A stretch of 64,000 nt of DNA, taken from contig JACQBZ010000020.1 of the NCBI GenBank assembly GCA_016194285.1, forward strand, positions 1,994 through 65,993, given 5' to 3'. Below the pieces are notes generated by a model that saw nothing but the letters and a program-made list of their open reading frames with translations, was not told the DNA's origin and ran no database searches. Shown in pieces: positions 1,835 to 21,283 of the stretch. This DNA comes from Nitrospirota bacterium (GTDB taxonomy: Bacteria > Nitrospirota > Nitrospiria > JACQBZ01). The translations under genes were made by a program, and so were the position numbers. Each line of letters begins with the position of its first letter. Position 1 is the stretch's first letter.

Positions 1835-4800
1835 ATGAAACGGGCCGAACCCACAGAAACAAAAACCCCTTCATTCCTAAAGCCGCTCGTCGAGCCCACT
1901 CTTAAATTGGTCAGAGGCGGCCGTCGCCGGCTCGTCTTCTCCGGCCTGTGGGGCTCGGCCAAATCGGCCGTGATCGCCGGGATCGTGGATGAAACGAACC
2001 TTCCGTTCTTCGTCATCACCGCGACGGACGCGCAGGCTGAATCGTTTCATCAGGACCTGGTCTGCTGGTTTCAATGGCTGGGACGCCCGGCCGATGAGCC
2101 GATCCTGTTTCCATCCACAGAAATTCTTCCTTACGAGCTGACCGCCCCCCATCCCGACCTGATTCGCGAACGGATGCAGGCATTGTATGGGATGGCCCAG
2201 ACCGATCACGGCCGAGCCGGCCGGCCGATAATTTTGGTCGCTTCCGTCCCGGCCGCGATGCAGCGCGTGAGGACTCCCGCCTCGCTGCGCGAGTCCGTCC
2301 TCTCCCTGTCCACCGGACAATCGGCCGACCGGGACGGCCTGATCGAATCCTTGGTGGATCTCGGTTATTCCAACACCGACCGCGTCGAGCATCCAGGGGA
2401 ATTCAGCGTGCGGGGCGGGATCCTGGACCTTTTCTCAACCGCGGGCCACGAGCCGGTTCGAATTGAATGGGCGGGCGATCAGGTCGAGTCGATCCGGATT
2501 TTCGATCCCGAGACCCAGCTCTCGGCCGCGGCACAAACCCAAGTAGGGATTCTTCCGGCCCATGAACCGGACGATCAGGCCAACACCACGGTGATGGACT
2601 ACCTTCCTCCGGGAACGCGCTTGGTGCTGGATGAACCCGGCCAGATCCAGGACCTCATGGAAGAATTTGATTCCGAGGTCCGCTTGGCCCAGTCCTCCTT
2701 GCCGCCCGATCGGCGAACCGCTCTTCGACGCTATCTCACATCGGACGAGCTGAACCGGCATCTGCAATCGGGGCCGTCCATCCTTCTCGAAACAAGCCAT
2801 CTCGAAGCGGAATCGGACCGGGACCTGATTTCATTCTCGACACGCTCACCCGAAAGCCTCGGCCTGGGCGTCAGGGGAACACCGCTTTCCGCCGCGCTCA
2901 AGACGGCGGACGACTTAAGACGAAAGGCCCGCGTCATCTTCGTCGCCAAAACCACGGCCCAAAAAGACCGGATGATAGACCTGTTCCGTGAACATGATCT
3001 GCCAGCCGAGACGGGATCCGGTGCAACCTTCTTATCGCCCGCCGGGCCGGGTTCGACTCCTCCATTCACGATCGCGGTCGGCGCGCTTTCGTCGGGCTTC
3101 ATCGATCTTCAAAACCGCCTCGCCCTCCTGACGGATGAGGACCTCTTCGGCAAGACCGCCAAGCACCGCCCGGCGCCGAAACTCAAACGGGCTCAATTCC
3201 TTTCCTCGCTGGAGGACCTGGAGGATGGAGACTATCTTGTCCACGTTCAACACGGAATCGCACGCTACGAGGGTCTGAAACGGCTCTCGATCCAGGGCTA
3301 TGAAAGTGATTTTCTGATCCTCCGTTATCGGGGCGGTGACACCCTTTATCTCCCCGTCGACCGTCTGAACCTCGTCCAGAAATATACCGGCGTCGAAGGC
3401 CATCGCCCCAAACTGGATCGTCTCGGCGGCGTCACCTGGTCGCGAACCACGCGACGGGTCAAGAAGGCGGTTGAGATGATCGCGAAGGAGATCGTGGAAC
3501 TGTACGCCGTACGAGAGACGACCCCGGGCCATGGATTTTCAAAAAACCCGGCGCTCGCCCGTGAGTTCGACGCCGCCTTCGCCTACGAAGAGACCCCCGA
3601 CCAGCTCAAGGTGATCGAGGAGGTCCATCAGGACATGGAAGAGCCCCAGCCGATGGACCGGCTGATCTGCGGCGACGTCGGCTACGGGAAGACCGAGGTG
3701 GCGATGCGGGCTGCGTTCAAGGCGGTGATCGACGGGAAACAGGTCGCCGTCCTGGTGCCGACGACCTTGCTGGCGCAGCAACACGGGGAGACCTTCCGCG
3801 AACGGTTCGCGCCGTTTCCGGTCCGCGTCGAAACGCTCAGCCGGTTTCGCACCTCCAAGGAACAGAAGACGATCCTCTCGGATCTGTCCGCGGGGAAAGT
3901 GGACATCGTGATCGGGACCCACCGTCTCCTCCAAAAGGACATCGTCTTCCACGATCTCGGTCTGCTGATCGTGGATGAAGAACAGCGGTTCGGCGTCGGC
4001 CATAAAGAAAAACTCAAACAGCTCCGAAAGACGGTGGACACCTTGACCCTCAGCGCGACGCCCATCCCCCGAACGCTCCAGATGGCCCTGACCGGAATCC
4101 GCAAACTCTCGATCATTGACACGCCCCCGGCCGATCGTCTCGCCGTCCGGACCATCCTGACGCGTTTCGACCGTTCGGTGATCCGGAACGCCATTCTCCG
4201 GGAATTAGCGCGGGGAGGACAGGTCTTTTTCGTCCACAACCGCGTGCAGGACATCGAGCGGCTCGGCCAGTTCCTCCGCGAACTCGTCCCGGAGGCGAAG
4301 CTCGCGGTGGCGCACGGTCAAATGAACGGACGGGAATTGGAACAGGTGATGTGGAAATTCGTGCATCAGGAAACGAACGTTCTCCTGACCACGACGATCA
4401 TCGAATCGGGCCTCGACATCCCCACCGCCAACACCATTCTGATCAACGACGCCCACCGGTTCGGCTTGGCCGACCTCTATCAACTCCGGGGACGCGTGGG
4501 ACGGTCGGGGCATCAGGCCTTTGCCTATCTCCTCGTCCCGTCCGATCGCGGCCTGACCGAAGAAGCCCGGGCCCGCATTCAGGCGATCCAGGAGTTCTGT
4601 GAACTGGGCGCCGGTTTCCGAATCGCGGCGCGCGACCTGGAAATTCGGGGCGCCGGCAATTTCCTGGGCAGACAGCAGTCCGGCCATATCGCGGCGGTCG
4701 GGTTCGACTATTATCTTCAGTTGATCGAGGAATGCGTGCAGGAACTGAAAGGCAAACCGGCGGAAGCCGAGATCGAGCCGATCCTGAACCTGAAGGTTTC

Positions 4801-5243: not shown

Positions 5244-6146
5244 ATGTTCAGGAGTCCATTACCAAGATTCGTGTTCATAACGGTAGGGTTATTGGCCTGC
5301 AACAAGTCGGCCACACCCGCCATTTCGACCCCGGATTCGACCCTGGCTCAGGTCAACGGAACACCGATTACGGTCGTCCAGTTTAATCAGAGATGGTCGC
5401 AGCTTCCCGAACCGGCCCGCGCGGCCTACGCCGGTCCAAACGGGAAAAAAGATTTCCTGAGTGAATTGATCACCCGCGAGCTGCTCCTTCAGAAGGCCCA
5501 TCAGATGAAACTGGACCAGGACAAAACCGTCGGAGAGCGCGTGGAATCCTTTAAAGAGCGGCTGTTGCTGGATACCACGCTTCATGAGCTGATCGAGAAA
5601 AAGGTCGAGGTATCGGAGGAGGAACTGACGGCCCAGTTCAACGCCCATCGAGACGCCCTTCCCCTGATCGAAGAGGCCCGGGCGAGTCACATTCTGGTCA
5701 AGACCGAATCCGAGGCCCGGGCCTTGCTGGGCCGGCTGCGCCGGGGCGCCGATTTCGCCGCCCTGGCCAAAGCCCACTCGATGGATCCCGCCACCAAGGA
5801 CAAGGGAGGCGATCTGGGCCTCTTGCGTAAAGGCCGGGTGCTTCCGGAGTTCGAGAAGGTCGTTTTCGAAATGAAGCCCGGTCAGATCAGCGACGTGGTC
5901 CGAACATCATACGGCTATCACATCATCCGCGTTCAAAGCCGGCGCACCCCAAAACCGCTCTCGGTCGACGACGTGCGGGACGAGCTCCGTGAACAAATCA
6001 TCAAAGACAAAGAAACGGCCCTGTTCGATGCGCTCGTTAAAACATTACGGGCCGAATCCAACATCGTGATTTCGGAGTCCCGGCTGGCCTCCATCGGAGA
6101 AGATGTCACAAAGAACCATGACCCCGCGTCCACGGCTCAACACTAA
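5244..6146 (+). CDS. PpiC/parvulin-type peptidyl-prolyl isomerase (lipoprotein-like)
   Basis: ARASHILVK, DFAALAKAHSMD, GGDLG, YGYHII; GGGAGG RBS before ATG 5244; TGC-TATAAT at 5208-5216. Confidence 0.85.
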   Translation: MFRSPLPRFVFITVGLLACNKSATPAISTPDSTLAQVNGTPITVVQFNQRWSQLPEPARAAYAGPNGKKDFLSELITRELLLQKAHQMKLDQDKTVGERVESFKERLLLDTTLHELIEKKVEVSEEELTAQFNAHRDALPLIEEARASHILVKTESEARALLGRLRRGADFAALAKAHSMDPATKDKGGDLGLLRKGRVLPEFEKVVFEMKPGQISDVVRTSYGYHIIRVQSRRTPKPLSVDDVRDELREQIIKDKETALFDALVKTLRAESNIVISESRLASIGEDVTKNHDPASTAQH

Positions 6147-7104
6147 GCCGTTCTGTTTGTACGCCGTGGTTGTACTGTGCATCGGCTGTGGGAAGACCAG
6201 CGTTCTTCCTTCCTCGCCGATCGTCGCGATGATCGATGAGGACAGCATCAGTCGTGACGAGTTCAGAGCCGCTTTTATGGAGGCCAAGATCGAGGGCGCG
6301 ATCGACGAAAACAGCGAATCCGTCAAGGAACTCAAGCGGAACCTGCTCAACGAGCTGATCGAGCAACGCCTGTTTCTGGCCGAGGCCGGAAGGCTGAAGC
6401 TGGAGGTCGGCGCAGACGAACTGCAGCAAGCCGTCGACCGGATCAAAGGAGATTACGCGGCCGGAGAGTTTGAGGCCATGCTTCAGAAGCAGCAAACCAC
6501 CTTTGAACAATGGAAGGAGCGCCTTCGAAAGGAACTCTTGAGTCAGAAGGTCATCAATCAGGCCGTGCCTCAAAACATCCAGATCCCCGACGCGGAAGTT
6601 CAAAACTACTACAAACAGCACCCTAAGGATTTCGTGCGCCCGTACGAGGTCCGGGCGCGCCAGATCGTCGTGGCCAACGAGGAAACGGCCCAATCGATCC
6701 GCCTCCAACTGACGCAGGGGGCCGACTTCGCGTCGCTGGCGAAAACCCACTCCCTCAGCCCGGATAAAGAGCAGGGCGGTGACCTCGGTTATTTCACGAA
6801 GGGCGATATGCCGGAGGAATTTGATATCGTCTTCTCTCTGGGGGTCGGGAAGATCAGCCCGATCGTCAAAACCGCCTACGGGTATCATATCTTCAAGGTA
6901 GAGGAGCAGCATCCGGCCAAACCGATGACGCCGGCCGAGGTCGCGGAGAGAATTCGAGCCCAACTGACCCAAGAGCGGCGTGAACAGTCGTTCGCGGCCT
7001 GGGTCGCCCGTCTCAAAGAGAAGGCTCGGATTACGGTGAACTACCAGATCCTCTATCAACCGCTGGGGTTATCGGATTCACCCCCGGAGCCCGTCCATGA
7101 CTAA
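6103..7104 (+). CDS. SurA-N plus parvulin peptidyl-prolyl isomerase
   Basis: VRARQIVV, DFASLAKTHSLSPD, GGDLGYF, TAYGYHIFKV. Confidence 0.85.
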   Translation: MSQRTMTPRPRLNTKPFCLYAVVVLCIGCGKTSVLPSSPIVAMIDEDSISRDEFRAAFMEAKIEGAIDENSESVKELKRNLLNELIEQRLFLAEAGRLKLEVGADELQQAVDRIKGDYAAGEFEAMLQKQQTTFEQWKERLRKELLSQKVINQAVPQNIQIPDAEVQNYYKQHPKDFVRPYEVRARQIVVANEETAQSIRLQLTQGADFASLAKTHSLSPDKEQGGDLGYFTKGDMPEEFDIVFSLGVGKISPIVKTAYGYHIFKVEEQHPAKPMTPAEVAERIRAQLTQERREQSFAAWVARLKEKARITVNYQILYQPLGLSDSPPEPVHD

Positions 7105-8065
7105 GCGACTCTGGCGCATCGTCATTTCGGTCTTCCTTTTCATAGGCGGGGTCCAACCGTCGTTCAGCGACGCGGTGACCGTCGACCGGATCGCGGCCAT
7201 CGTTAACGGCGAGATCATCACCACATCCGACCTACAATCCGCCGCTGCCCGGGCCCGTCTCGGCTTACTGACTCTGGCGCCGGATGGAACGGCTTCCCAC
7301 AGGCCGTTTTCCGAACAGGAGGTCCTGGGACAATTGATCGATCAAAAACTTCAGCTGCAACTGGCCCGGAAGAAGGGCATCACGGTCGAACCGGATGAAA
7401 TCGAAAAAGCGGTGGAAGACGTGAAACAAAAAAACGGCCTGACCACCGATGCGGCCCTCCAAAAAGCGCTGCAGGAGGAACATTCCAGCCTCGACCAGTA
7501 CAAAAACGGACTGAAGGACCAAATCCTGATTCTCAAACTCGTGAATCGCGAAGTAAGGTCGGGTGTGATCCTCAGCGATCAGGATATCCGCGCGTACTAC
7601 GCGGAGCATCCGGAACGGTTTCGGGCTCCCTTGCAGTATCACCTCCATCAAATTTTCATCCCCCTATCAAAACCCGACGCATTGCCGATGTTCGATCAGA
7701 GCGTCGGGAATGCCGTCAATCAACTCAAAGGCGGCGCCGAATTCCAGGCCTTGGTCAAACAATACTCGCAGGGTTCGGATCGGAATAACGACGGCGACCT
7801 GGGGAACCTCAAGGCGGACCAGATGCTGCCGGAAGTGCGCCAGGCGGTCGAACATTTAAAACCCGGCGAGGTCAGTGAGCCGATCAAAACAGCCCTCGGG
7901 GCACATATCTTCCGATTGGATGAGATCATTCCGCCCAAACCCCGCCCGATCGAAGAGGTCAAGCCGGAAATTCAGGAGCTTTTATTTCAGGAGCGTTCGG
8001 CCGAATTATATGAGAAGTGGCTGAAAGATTTGCGGGCCGGCGCACAGGTCGATGTCAAGTATTAG
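7097..8065 (+). CDS. surA: SurA-like periplasmic chaperone/PPIase
   Basis: Signal peptide, DRIAAIVNGEIIT SurA N-term, HLHQIFI, GDLG, GAHIFRL. Confidence 0.8.
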   Translation: MTKRLWRIVISVFLFIGGVQPSFSDAVTVDRIAAIVNGEIITTSDLQSAAARARLGLLTLAPDGTASHRPFSEQEVLGQLIDQKLQLQLARKKGITVEPDEIEKAVEDVKQKNGLTTDAALQKALQEEHSSLDQYKNGLKDQILILKLVNREVRSGVILSDQDIRAYYAEHPERFRAPLQYHLHQIFIPLSKPDALPMFDQSVGNAVNQLKGGAEFQALVKQYSQGSDRNNDGDLGNLKADQMLPEVRQAVEHLKPGEVSEPIKTALGAHIFRLDEIIPPKPRPIEEVKPEIQELLFQERSAELYEKWLKDLRAGAQVDVKY

Positions 8066-18892: not shown

Positions 18893-18994
18893 AGGGTATG
18901 AACTTACCAGTTCAAAGGAAGACGATCAAGAAGAATTATTCCTGTTTTCCAATCCACTCAGCGCAGGGGATACAAACATGGGGAGATCAATCCT

Positions 18995-19020
18995 CGCCCG
19001 TCCCGAAGGACGGGCGCTAC
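18995..19020 (-). repeat. GTAG REP-like hairpin with UUCG loop
   Basis: Minus strand GTAG-CGCCCGTCC-TTCG-GGACGGGCG; sits exactly where Cas3 stub 1 ends. Confidence 0.6.
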
Positions 19021-19060
19021 TTCCCTGGCTGTTTTTAGAATGGGCGGAATATTCGGCCAT
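19021..19060 (-). pseudogene. Cas3 HD-domain 5' stub 1 (MAEYSAHSKNSQG)
   Basis: Imperfect direct repeat of 19935-19973; YxAHS-x-NSxG start typical of Cas3 HD N-termini. Confidence 0.5.
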
Positions 19061-19096
19061 GTAGCTGCAAAGCAAGATTATCCCCTTTCATTCCCC

Positions 19097-19128
19097 ATAA
19101 TACCAACTCCGCGTGACAGGGCAGGTCA
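19097..19128 (-). promoter_or_regulatory. Putative WYL-regulated promoter: TGAC-N7-GTCA, 11 nt, TATTAT
   Basis: Palindrome 19114-19128, -10 at 19097-19102 with TGn extension; same spacing as 20044-20075. Confidence 0.55.
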
Positions 19129-19146
19129 AAAGATCAAAAAATGAAT

Positions 19147-19175
19147 TTGACAGAATTCTGTACATTATTTATAAT
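19147..19175 (+). promoter_or_regulatory. Sigma70 promoter of TA module 1 with operator palindrome
   Basis: TTGACA-17-TATAAT; ACAGAATTCTGT palindrome at 19150-19161. Confidence 0.8.
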
Positions 19176-19206
19176 CTCTGTTATCAAATTACCAAGGAGG
19201 TTCCCA

Positions 19207-19488
19207 ATGTCCATCTCTCCCAAAGACATCATCCCGCTGACCAAGGCCCGGGCAAAGCTCACGGAGTTGTGCGAGCAGGTCCGCCGGGAGCACGGCGAGA
19301 AGATCATCACCAAGAACGGCGAGTCCTGCGCCGCATTGATCGACGCCGACCGGCTGGACCACTACCACCGCTTGGAGCGGGAGCACGTCCATCTCACGCT
19401 TCTTGAGGAAGCGATCCGCGGAATGGAAGATGTCGCTGCCGGGAAAACCCTTTCCCTGAAAGAGTTAAAAACCCGCCATGGCCGGTAG
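19207..19488 (+). CDS. Phd/YefM-family antitoxin
   Basis: IIPLTKARAKLTEL...IITKNGESCAALI; AAGGAGG RBS before ATG 19207. Confidence 0.88.
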   Translation: MSISPKDIIPLTKARAKLTELCEQVRREHGEKIITKNGESCAALIDADRLDHYHRLEREHVHLTLLEEAIRGMEDVAAGKTLSLKELKTRHGR

Positions 19489-19849
19489 ACGGCGAACACC
19501 TGTCTTTACCGAGAATTTCAGCCTCAACCTTGATGCCCTCCGGCTCTTTCTGGAACCGGAGGGACGCGCCGCATTCGAACGCCTCCTCGACCGCCTGTTC
19601 GATGACATCGTGCCGATGCTTTGCCGACACTCTCAGTCCGGCCGGATCTTTCTCCAGCATCCGATCCGATCGAAAGAAGCCCGATCTCTATCGCGAAAGC
19701 TGAAAACCTTTCTGAAAAAAGGCGACACGCTTCGCGAGTTTGTCGTGGATGACTATCTTATGCTGTATTTGCACAGAGACCGTCAGGTGGTTTTTCTGTC
19801 CATCAAACACCACCGTCAGCTCTCCTTTGACCTGCGACGATTCTGGTAG
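19478..19849 (+). CDS. RelE/ParE-family toxin
   Basis: Overlaps antitoxin; VFTENF..NL, LREF..DDYLMLY...VVFLSIKH. Confidence 0.75.
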   Translation: MAGRRRTPVFTENFSLNLDALRLFLEPEGRAAFERLLDRLFDDIVPMLCRHSQSGRIFLQHPIRSKEARSLSRKLKTFLKKGDTLREFVVDDYLMLYLHRDRQVVFLSIKHHRQLSFDLRRFW

Positions 19850-19973
19850 TCCCGCTCGCCCGCCCCGAACTTAGCGGCAAATTCCCCCACCCGCCGGGCG
19901 ACGCTCGTTAGATGCTCGACCCGGTCGTGCTTGATCCTTGGCTGTTTTCAGAATGGGCGAAATAGTCGTTCAT
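19850..19973 (-). pseudogene. Cas3 HD-domain 5' stub 2, frameshifted
   Basis: MNDYFAHSENSQG / 1-nt shift / KHDRVEHLTSVARRVGEFAAKFGAGE; stops before the HD motif, at the stop of toxin 1. Confidence 0.65.
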
Positions 19974-20043
19974 GTCACAGTGATAATGCGGGCGACGCTG
20001 AAGTCGCGGTCAACGCAAGGCATATCCACTCCTTTCCACGGAA

Positions 20044-20075
20044 ATCTTACAATACCCTCGTGACAACGGGGGTCA
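20044..20075 (-). promoter_or_regulatory. Putative WYL-regulated promoter: TGAC-N7-GTCA, 11 nt, TAAGAT
   Basis: Palindrome 20061-20075, -10 at 20044-20049; upstream of Cas3 stub 2. Confidence 0.55.
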
Positions 20076-20099
20076 AAGTTTTTTCTCCCATCCGCTCGC

Positions 20100-20151
20100 T
20101 TGACAGCAGCTTAAGAAGCCATTATAATGGCCATTATCATAGCCATAATGG
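20100..20151 (+). promoter_or_regulatory. Sigma70 promoter of TA module 2 with operator palindromes
   Basis: TTGACA(20100)-17-TATAAT(20123); CCATTATAATGG 20119-20130 and CCATTAT-N7-ATAATGG 20131-20151. Confidence 0.8.
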
Positions 20152-20161
20152 AGACAATCTT

Positions 20162-20461
20162 ATGAAACAGGTAGACCAATTTGTATCGGTTACAGATGCC
20201 AAGAACCGCCTTCTGGATCTCATCCGAAGCCTTGCCGAGAAAGATGAGGTGCTGGCAATCACGCGCGGCGGCATCCCCGCCGCCGTCGTCCTCAGCCCCG
20301 AGCGGTACGAGGGTCTTTTGGAGACCATTGAAGTCCTCAGCGACCCCCGCTCGATGGAGTCCATTCGCCGATCGCTCAAGCAGGCCCGGAAGGGCCGCTG
20401 GCTGAGCGAGGAAGAGGTCTTCGGAAAAGAGAAGGCCCGCCTGTCCGGCCGGCAGGCATGA
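20162..20461 (+). CDS. Phd/YefM-family antitoxin
   Basis: VSVTDAKNRLLDLI...ITRGGIPAAVVLS...LLETIEVLSD; ATG 20162 downstream of promoter. Confidence 0.9.
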   Translation: MKQVDQFVSVTDAKNRLLDLIRSLAEKDEVLAITRGGIPAAVVLSPERYEGLLETIEVLSDPRSMESIRRSLKQARKGRWLSEEEVFGKEKARLSGRQA

Positions 20462-20751
20462 AGGCCTTTCGCGTCCGGTACACGCCCGAAGCGGCCTCCC
20501 TCATCCGAAAACTCCATCCCGAAATCAAGCGCCGAATCCGGGGCGGAATCAAAACGCTTCTCGAAAATCCGTTGTCGGGCCATGAGCTCCGTTTTGAGCT
20601 GTCCGGTTTTCGATCCCACCGTGTGAAGAACTATCGCATCATCTACCGACTCAATGATCCCGAGGGTTTTCTCGAAATCCTTTTCGTCGGTCAACGGCGG
20701 GACGTTTATGAAAGCCTCCGAGCCCTGTTGTTGGAAAAATCCTCCGACTGA
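20458..20751 (+). CDS. RelE/StbE-family toxin
   Basis: 4-bp overlap with antitoxin; LLENPLSGHEL...FRSHRVKNYRIIY...ILFVGQRRDVY. Confidence 0.88.
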   Translation: MKAFRVRYTPEAASLIRKLHPEIKRRIRGGIKTLLENPLSGHELRFELSGFRSHRVKNYRIIYRLNDPEGFLEILFVGQRRDVYESLRALLLEKSSD

Positions 20752-20789
20752 CTTCGCCGTCTCCGCGTTGAGCGGGAAGACCTTGCCTT

Positions 20790-21283
20790 GATCCCCTGAT
20801 ATTTCCCCAACAGTCTCTAGGCCTCGTTCTGGACCGCCTGCATCAAACTTTCCGGACGAACCACCCGGACCTTTGCGCCAAAGCCCAACACCCATGCGAG
20901 CAGTTCAGGGCAAACGGCCACCTGAAGATTCATCCGGATCCGCCCGCCTTTGAGCGGCGTGATCCGCTGGCTCGCATGCCAGGTTCGCTCACGCACCCAC
21001 CGGGCGGCCGACTTTTCAAAGACCAGCTCCACGCCCTCTGCTTCCCCCCGGAACACGTCAGGACTGAGCGCGGAGCGGCTCTTCTGGAATAAGCTGTGAA
21101 GAGAATCACCCAGGAAGGTGCCATCGAGCGGTAGTCCGGGTCAAGAACCCAAAAGGTTTTCCCGTCTTCACGCTGATCATAGATCGGAAAACCAGCGAGG
21201 CCCAATGCATCCAGGTCCCGCCGCAGTGTCCGCTGATGGCAGGCATCGTCCAGCTCGGAGGCTAAACGTTGGGTTGACAGCCC
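20790..21283 (-). pseudogene. HTH-WYL-WCX transcriptional regulator remnant
   Basis: HTH GLSTQRLASELDDACHQRTLRRDLDALGLAGFPI; frameshifted linker GTFLGDSLHSLFQKSRSALSP; WCX VELVF...WHASQ...ELLAWVLGFGAKVRVVRPESL; premature TAG then RLLGKY; no start codon, WYL core missing. Confidence 0.75.

Follow-up and report, generated by a model that had tools for sequence, protein, structure and literature searches.

Probable Remains of a Type I-C CRISPR-Cas Locus under WYL Control, with Intact Toxin-Antitoxin Genes, between engB and a TPR Gene in a Nitrospiria Genome

Results

Overview of the Locus

We analyzed a 64,000-nt stretch of DNA (hereafter, the window; contig C23, positions 1994-65993) from the metagenome-assembled genome of a Nitrospirota bacterium of the class Nitrospiria, an assembly of 2.31 Mb in 102 contigs that is 88.6% complete. 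The subject of this report is a block of the window located between engB and a gene encoding a TPR protein. On the evidence below, this block is very probably the non-functional fossil of a type I-C CRISPR-Cas locus that was regulated by a WYL protein and was inserted between the two genes in this lineage. Read on the minus strand from 21283 to 18893, the order of the pieces is a broken helix-turn-helix (HTH)-WYL-WCX regulator, a first toxin-antitoxin pair (TA#1), a promoter followed by a truncated cas3 start (promoter A and stub A), a second toxin-antitoxin pair (TA#2), a second promoter and cas3 start (promoter B and stub B), a single CRISPR repeat, a short trailer, and the native upstream region of engB. 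Coordinates are given in Table 1. Gene callers would label this stretch as two toxin-antitoxin (TA) pairs plus junk, and for annotation it would be explained as a fossil CRISPR locus.

Table 1. Features of the block between engB and the TPR gene; positions are those of the window.
Feature	Coordinates	Strand	Description and basis
Inserted block, engB/TPR	18946..21272	minus	2,327 bp; alignment to the empty engB-TPR intergenic regions of G001, G002, G004-G006
HTH-WYL-WCX regulator remnant	20817..21272	minus	WCX match, tblastn against the G042 WYL regulator, three-frame translation
ParE1, ParE/RelE-family toxin	20458..20751	plus	intact, 97 amino acids; PF05016, 43.8 bits (cut-off 23 bits)
Phd1, Phd/YefM antitoxin	20162..20461	plus	intact, 99 amino acids; PF02604, 54.1 bits (cut-off 29.8 bits)
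Promoter A	20044..20075	minus	palindrome TGAC-N7-GTCA (20075-20061), 11 nt, TAAGAT (20049-20044)
cas3 stub A	19846..19973	minus	MNDYFAHSENSQG, frameshift after codon 13, then KHDRVEHLTSVARRVGEFAAKFGAGE(RDYQ); ~40-44 codons
ParE2, ParE/RelE-family toxin	19478..19849	plus	intact, 123 amino acids; PF05016, 25.3 bits (cut-off 23 bits)
Phd2, Phd/YefM antitoxin	19207..19488	plus	intact, 93 amino acids; PF02604, 36.9 bits (cut-off 29.8 bits)
Promoter B	19097..19128	minus	palindrome TGAC-N7-GTCA (19128-19114), 11 nt, TATTAT (19102-19097)
cas3 stub B	19022..19060	minus	MAEYSAHSKNSQG, 13 codons
Solitary type I-C CRISPR repeat	18984..19020	minus	GTAGCGCCCGTCCTTCGGGACGGGCGAGGATTGAtct, 37 nt, one base after stub B
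Trailer	18946..18983	minus	~40 nt between the repeat and the insertion boundary

Two Truncated cas3 Starts and Their Promoters

Stub A begins with an ATG at 19973, and its 3′ end, at about 19846/19850, abuts or overlaps the stop codon of ParE2. Both stubs end ahead of the HD motif, and they have 41 nt in common at 85% identity, a similarity that extends upstream through the promoter and leader to about 150 nt in all. The relationship of stub A to Cas3 was evaluated with a custom profile built from six Cas3 N-termini of relatives, cut ahead of the HD motif, and searched against the 61,435 six-frame open reading frames (ORFs) of the organism's own genome. It was found that stub A was the top match, with an E-value of 7e-4, compared to 0.49 for the runner-up. 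In the genomes of 60 relatives (designated by G numbers), the best long-frame matches of the stub were N-termini, namely that of a 746-amino acid frame of G035 (49% identity, residues 4-40) and those of frames in G046 and G030. The frame in G035 encodes Cas3 (93.6 bits with cas3_HD of NCBIfam) and heads a cas5-cas8c-cas7-cas4-cas1-cas2 operon with an array, with a WYL regulator of 328 amino acids upstream of the operon.

The identity of stub A to the N-termini of full Cas3 proteins was 44-55%, and the alignments followed the pattern Y-x-A-H-S ... H-x-L-x-x-H-L-x-x-V-x-x-x-x-x-E-F-A-x-x-F-G. Metagenomic contigs retrieved with the stub encode full Cas3 proteins that read ...AAKFGAGE(I/L)..W.G.LHDLGK, in one case followed by cas5c. 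Because AAKFGAGE lies directly ahead of the LHDLGK HD motif in these proteins, stub A stops just short of that motif. An exact degenerate DNA pattern of the common cas3 start gave 0 matches in the metagenome contigs.

The palindrome that precedes each stub, with its TAnnAT box, was also found upstream of intact cas3 genes in G042, G071, G091, and G061, as well as in relics in G009 and G005, and the spacing between palindrome and box was 11 nt in every occurrence. A normal -35 box does not fit into this spacing, which makes a promoter of the activator type likely, and the promoter probably depends on the WYL protein. The motif is present in G091 in the absence of a TA pair; therefore, it belongs to the control region of the WYL-cas3 unit.

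A 17-codon upstream ORF (MPCVDRDFSVARIITVT; 20023-19970, minus strand) with a good ribosome-binding site has a stop codon that overlaps the start of stub A (ATGA). A similar ORF, MMLCVDHDVSVALITWAE, follows a promoter-A-like relic in G025 (contig C52, locus L068, about 5447-5391), and this short ORF may be a leader peptide of this type of cas3.

A Solitary CRISPR Repeat Joined to Stub B

The repeat next to stub B, which an earlier sequence-only reading of this DNA did not contain, was 34/37 identical to the array repeats of G009, and one base more different from the repeats beside the type I-C operons of G035 (whose repeat is GTAGCGCCCGTCCTTCGGGGCGGGCGAGGATTGAAAC) and G030. In a pattern search of 61 genomes, the repeat was seen to form arrays in G009 (12 copies, exactly the GGGACGGG variant of the window), G011 (20), G012 (10), G030, G035, and G046, and those of G009, G035, G030, and G046 lie beside type I-C operons. 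The same search found exactly one copy in the organism's own genome, and a reversed control pattern gave 0 matches in the 61 genomes. The type I-G loci of relatives carry a different repeat. Type I-C is indicated by the repeat found here in combination with a cas3 that has its HD region at the start. Because the repeat is joined directly to cas3 codon 13, a deletion must have removed everything between them, and in our view the attachment of a type I-C repeat to stub B clinches the CRISPR origin of the fragments.

The trailer was not significantly repeat-like in local alignments to the repeat compared to shuffles (p = 0.13), and it has no other copy in the genome. We considered whether it could be a degenerate terminal repeat and rejected this, as only GGATTGGAA matches. 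A stretch of 15 nt in stub A (19869-19855, TTCGGGGCGGGCGAG, cas3 codons 36-40, encoding FGAGE) is the same as 15 nt of the stem of the G035 variant of the repeat (compare 19007-18993), with a z of about 5 relative to shuffles. The interpretation that a partial CRISPR repeat forms the end of stub A was rejected, because TTCGGGGCGGGCGAG codes for FGAGE, a motif conserved in Cas3, both in full-length proteins and in the relics of G009, G029, and G049. The identity is either a coincidence or the result of some relation between cas3 and the repeat.

Solitary or truncated repeats were also seen beside TA genes in relatives. In G002 (locus L030, contig C64, 6060-7264), a solitary copy of the same repeat is located between lipA and a GGDEF gene, directly after a gene for a 167-amino acid 23S-rRNA-IVS/four-helix-bundle protein and a Phd/RelE pair, and this site looks like a second, independent CRISPR ruin. 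In G003, a truncated repeat lies about 60 nt from the ParE1 stop codon, and in G059, cas2 is followed by one repeat and then a Phd/RelE pair. These arrangements fit the idea of TA cargo that outlives or flanks cas loci, and type I loci are known to have variable hotspots that hold TA cargo and standalone repeats (PMC10120712, PMC9458426).

The Broken Regulator

The WCX domain of the regulator remnant was recognized by Pfam (PF25583, E = 5.6e-16, 59.1 bits compared to a cut-off of 23.9 bits), and the HTH fragment gave a weak match to HTH_11 (E = 0.015, 15.6 bits, under the 25-bit cut-off) and is 59% identical to the HTH of the WYL regulator of G042. The latter is an intact protein of 348 amino acids with PF13280 (WYL), PF25583 (WCX), and HTH_11/HTH_PafC domains. 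In tblastn, the remnant aligned to it in three pieces, corresponding to residues 23-73, 96-119, and 239-329, at 50-59% identity, and the remnant was 59-61% identical to the WYL regulators of G042 and G071, which are its closest relatives (61%). The remnant has no start codon and lacks residues 1-22 (G042 numbering), a 22-residue stretch (74-95), and residues 120-238, the last being the entire WYL core (the PF13280 part of the G042 homologue). It also contains one frameshift, at the 22-residue gap, and a premature stop, where a TGG encoding Trp in the relative has become TAG at 20819-20817, and homology to the regulator persists past this TAG to about 20784. A search of genome contigs with the WCX fragment returned only distant proteins of Planctomycetota and Spirochaetales (36-43% identity) and was uninformative. 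Another WYL-family gene is present in the organism's own genome (C46:1301-1864), with 25-29% identity to the CRISPR-linked WYL proteins.

The sequence-only reading had described a regulator without a start codon or a WYL core and with a premature stop, followed by two cas3-like N-termini that end before the HD motif, one of them with a frameshift, and these descriptions were borne out by the Pfam, tblastn, profile, and alignment results. The span of 20790-21283 that it gave to the regulator holds from 21272 down, whereas 21283-21273, about three residues of the proposed gene, is the promoter of the TPR gene.

Like the HTH-WYL-WCX factors PafBC, DriD, and CapW/BrxR, and sll7009, a WYL protein that represses a type I-D system (PMC4012209), the remnant retains the whole WCX domain and probably part of the HTH, and its intact relatives stand upstream of cas3 and are followed by the palindrome promoter in place of a spaced -35 box. 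It differs from these factors in lacking the ligand-binding WYL core, a start codon, and a reading frame.

Absence of cas Genes and Arrays from the Assembly

No Cas3_HD match above the cut-off was found in the organism's assembly, and tblastn with queries from G035, G029, and G042 gave no match to cas1, cas2, cas3, cas4, cas5, cas7, cas8c, or type I-G proteins in this 88.6%-complete genome. A genome-wide screen of the assembly found no CRISPR array; the only spaced repeat that it returned was a 27-nt tandem repeat, GAGTCGTCGTGGTGGTAGTGCCGTGRA, at C48:20300-20470, which looks like a coding low-complexity sequence and not CRISPR.

The locus resembles type I-C loci (cas3-cas5c-cas8c-cas7-cas4-cas1-cas2 and an array, as in G035) in the start of cas3 ahead of the HD region, the HTH-WYL-WCX regulator upstream, and a 37-nt hairpin repeat that ends in GGATTGA(AAC) and matches the arrays of related type I-C loci. 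In contrast to those loci, it contains about 40-44 plus 13 codons of cas3 and one repeat only, with no HD nuclease-helicase cas3, no effector or adaptation genes, and no array, and is a fossil and not a system. Because the assembly is without cas1-cas8 genes and without an array, the locus is non-functional and there is no CRISPR immunity.

The Insertion Site

In the same-genus genomes G001 and G002 and the same-family genomes G004, G005, and G006, engB and the TPR gene are divergent neighbors about 100 bp apart, and the ABC genes beyond them are likewise conserved. In a base-level comparison with these empty sites, homology was lost after CCTGT (18945) and regained at GTTGACAGCC (21273), which is the -35 box of the TPR gene, so that native intergenic DNA is preserved on both flanks of the block up to that box. 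Because the site is empty in these relatives, the block appears to be an insertion in the lineage of this Nitrospiria genome. The boundary at 21272 falls within the WYL gene; therefore, the WYL gene was probably never complete at the engB-TPR site and was very likely already truncated on arrival. As the block starts inside the WYL gene and the engB-TPR interval is free of cas genes in every relative examined, it may be that the full locus was never present there.

The alternative is that a complete WYL-cas3-cas5-cas8-cas7-cas4-cas1-cas2-array locus was once resident in the engB-TPR interval and was lost in place through a succession of internal deletions. The pieces of the block do follow the order of a whole locus, with WYL at one end and a repeat at the other, beside engB, and the intergenic site is variable: the engB-TPR spacer of G003 (locus L036, contig C86, 8526-10334) holds an unrelated 1.9-kb insert encoding a 377-amino acid porin-like protein and a 219-amino acid protein, and this spacer looks like a hotspot for insertions. 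Against erosion in place stand the five relatives with an empty site, and also the retention of nearly all native DNA on both flanks with the WYL gene cut exactly at the boundary, which would require a later deletion to stop precisely at the old junction. Furthermore, the junction between stub A and ParE2 already exists elsewhere, in G049, G005, G006, and G018. We therefore regard erosion of a complete resident locus as possible but rather unlikely, and less parsimonious than insertion.

Erosion in place was what the sequence-only reading had proposed for an ancestral WYL-cas3 locus. The derivation of the fragments from a WYL-regulated type I CRISPR locus is upheld by intact WYL-(TA)-promoter-cas3 loci in G035, G042, G071, and G091 and by the type I-C repeat, so that the remains are those of a CRISPR locus; the decay at this site is what the empty sites and the start of the block inside the WYL gene speak against. 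That reading had suggested an examination of the engB-TPR interval in relatives, and no relative has a cas locus at this site. It had also named two outcomes that together would speak against it: the lack of any relative with cas genes at this position, which is what we found, and stubs that match proteins other than Cas3 or nothing, which we did not find.

Toxin-Antitoxin Pairs as Cargo of CRISPR Loci

The two TA pairs are the only intact genes of the block. The genes overlap by 4 nt (Phd1/ParE1) and 11 nt (Phd2/ParE2), and Phd2 has a promoter of its own, read from the sequence as TTGACA-17-TATAAT with a palindromic operator at about 19150-19178. ParE1 is 76% identical in amino acid sequence to the G003 copy, with proportions of nonsynonymous (pN) and synonymous (pS) differences of 0.15 and 0.73, respectively, and the corresponding values for Phd1 are 0.07 and 0.47. 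The TA#2 copies of G005 and G006 are 89% identical in DNA sequence, with 89-90% amino acid identity in ParE2, and the dN/dS values of TA#2 over six comparisons were 0.03-0.23 (0.03-0.17 for Phd2 and 0.10-0.23 for ParE2). The four TA genes are under purifying selection, and by inference both type II TA modules still work. They resemble Phd/YefM-ParE/RelE type II modules in the antitoxin-then-toxin order, the overlapping genes, the Pfam scores above cut-offs, and the palindromic operator of TA#2. They differ in location, as the pairs of this block and of relatives are found inside a CRISPR locus, with its regulator on one side and cas3 on the other, and their toxin and antitoxin activities are predicted ones.

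A class-wide DNA search of 401 genomes, with follow-up of individual loci, showed where TA#2 occurs in relatives. In G042 and G071, the WYL gene is followed by ParE2/Phd2 on the opposite strand (Phd2 81% identical), the TGAC-N7-GTCA palindrome, and a type I-G cas3, and G091 has this layout (WYL, TGAC-N7-GTCA, and cas3) minus the TA pair. In G029 and G061, TA#2 is followed by a type I-C cas3-cas5-cas8c-cas7 operon; the palindrome promoter lies 53 nt ahead of the cas3 start in G061, and no complete palindrome is left upstream of cas3 in G029. In G009, relics of TA#2, the promoter, and other small cassettes precede a type I-C cas3. The sequence-only reading had the TA modules occupy the site after the CRISPR locus had eroded, which does not hold, as Phd2/ParE2 are already present in the intact cas loci of G042, G071, G029, and G061. 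Because type I-C and type I-G loci alike have a TA pair between WYL and cas3, or just upstream of cas3, comparison of these loci indicates that the TA pairs are native CRISPR cargo that persisted when the cas genes were lost, and not later squatters.

In G009 (locus L031, contig C6), an element of about 130 nt is repeated at 4600-4740 and 6050-6170. Short runs of GTTTAAAC/TTGAACG-like motifs at 6200-6360 and 6800-6890 of the same locus flank a four-helix-bundle gene and an MqsA/DUF4258-like pair between the promoter and cas3. Such runs also flank the homologous gene in G002, and they may be cassette boundaries.

TA addiction modules in CRISPR-cas loci have been described as CreTA RNA modules (PMC9458426), as TA cargo close to the mini-arrays of type I-D loci (PMC10120712), and as type I TA modules adjoining arrays in C. 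difficile (PMC5961336). The present case is similar in that TA genes sit inside a cas locus, at a variable hotspot, and have solitary repeats in their vicinity. It is different in that these are protein type II TA modules with no sign of control by a CRISPR RNA (crRNA)-like RNA, and in that they outlived the cas genes and did not save them.

The Doubled cas3 Start and a Recurrent Junction

The point at which cas3 is fused to ParE2 in stub A recurs in other genomes. In G049 (contig C126), cas3 codons ~20-40 are fused to ParE2 at the same point, adjoining a radical-SAM gene, and G005, G006, and G018 have kept about 20 nt of the same cas3/ParE2 scar, their TA genes being 89-93% identical at the DNA level. 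Since these occurrences are at other genomic places, the junction predates the present site. In G005, in addition, TA#2 is flanked on its opposite side by a promoter-A-like leader; TA#2 lies there between rplM and hemE and may be an insertion (the corresponding region is fragmented in the organism's own genome). G025 has the promoter A leader alone. In G009 and G029, an older cas3 relic (AAEFAGKFGAG...) is found just upstream of the present cas3. These relics of an older N-terminus (locus L071 of G029, 7050-7110, and L031 of G009, 6900-6950; ARWATEFAG... and AAEFAGKFGAGKLGYW) differ from the present cas3 start, and they are evidence of replacement of the cas operon downstream of about codon 45. 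Recurrent scars, leaders, and relics at the 5′ region of cas3 point to a recombination hotspot, with TA#2 having spread together with pieces of that region.

A bolder interpretation, which we hold to be doubtful, is that Phd2/ParE2 form a mobile cargo cassette that uses the cas3 promoter and 5′ end as a portable homology arm, integrating as a circle upstream of cas3 by a single crossover and looping out again with scars. Integration of a circle made up of the TA pair and promoter-cas3′ would give a tandem of promoter-cas3′, TA, and promoter-cas3, as seen here, and the excised cassette would carry cas3 scars to new sites, such as those of G049, G005, G006, G018, and G025. If this were true, a protein TA module would parasitize, and perhaps stabilize, CRISPR regulatory regions across type I-C and type I-G loci and be the last tenant after the loss of cas genes.

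Discussion

From the pieces described above, we infer a probable history of the locus. As seen in relatives, the living unit consists of an HTH-WYL-WCX regulator, often an opposite-strand Phd/ParE pair, the palindrome promoter, cas3 and the other cas genes, and an array. Most likely the two promoter-cas3 starts were already present in the donor DNA; there, through the TA#2 block, a second promoter-cas3 unit would have come to lie behind a first, truncated one, and this may have happened by integration through a single crossover. The regulator carries four lesions, the first copy of cas3 ends at about codon 40-44, next to ParE2, and the second copy is cut at codon 13 by a deletion that reached an array repeat, presumably the last one, and that would have taken cas3 through cas2 and all spacers. 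A toxin is stable and its antitoxin labile, so that loss of a TA module is costly to the cell. Deletions that spared the TA pairs may thus have been the ones that survived, and such addiction would explain the alternation of stubs and TA pairs.

Several observations weigh against a fossil type I-C locus as the source of the block. The engB-TPR interval contains cas genes in none of the relatives examined, and a full locus was perhaps never present there. A search of Pfam and NCBIfam with the joined 40-residue stub gave no match, so that its assignment to cas3 comes from alignments and the custom profile; the stub is invisible to these databases because it ends before the profiled HD core, as in full Cas3 proteins the NCBIfam cas3_HD profile begins at residues 24-26 and the Pfam Cas3_HD match at residue 32. 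About 11% of the genome is unassembled and could hold cas genes or an array. The closest WYL relatives of the remnant belong to type I-G loci, which have a different repeat, and given the type I-C repeat found here, the donor was mosaic or is unsampled.

It is highly improbable that the repeat is part of a functional crRNA-like element of the CreA, CreR, or mini-array type, with the repeat and stub B as a guide and stub A or a TA promoter as its target. Standalone repeats with spacers that match the promoters of cas genes or TA cargo are widespread in type I loci (PMC10120712, PMC9458426), and the repeat does touch the 41-nt stretch that has a similar copy elsewhere in the block. However, neither flank contains another repeat-like sequence (p = 0.21 and p = 0.13 relative to shuffles), the similarity between the copies covers promoter, leader, and 13 codons compared to the 34-36 nt of a spacer, tblastn found no Cascade genes in the assembly, and the 41 nt downstream of the repeat have no match elsewhere in the genome. 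The notion that the stubs are non-coding DNA of TA cassettes that translates into something Cas3-like by chance, for which one could cite the lack of a Pfam or NCBIfam match and the promoter and leader that accompany TA#2 in G005, a genome without cas genes, is less probable still in view of the gap between the profile scores of stub A and the runner-up, the top matches to cas3 N-termini next to arrays in G035, G046, and G030, the AAKFGAGE common to full-length metagenomic Cas3 proteins, the same promoter ahead of the intact cas3 of G061, and the CRISPR repeat attached to stub B.

Read as a fossil type I-C locus, the block is a clean, dissected example of how a CRISPR-Cas locus dies, with one deletion from cas3 to a repeat, a gutted regulator, and only the TA pairs intact and under selection. 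It is an ordinary kind of object, instructive rather than surprising, and its modestly novel part is the presence of TA cassettes at the WYL-cas3 junction in Nitrospiria, where the same TA pair is found between WYL and cas3 in type I-C and type I-G loci and copies located elsewhere still carry cas3 scars. These loci offer a system in which it can be tested whether embedded protein TA modules stabilize CRISPR loci or merely hitch-hike, and which signal is sensed by the TGAC-N7-GTCA promoter and the WYL regulator.

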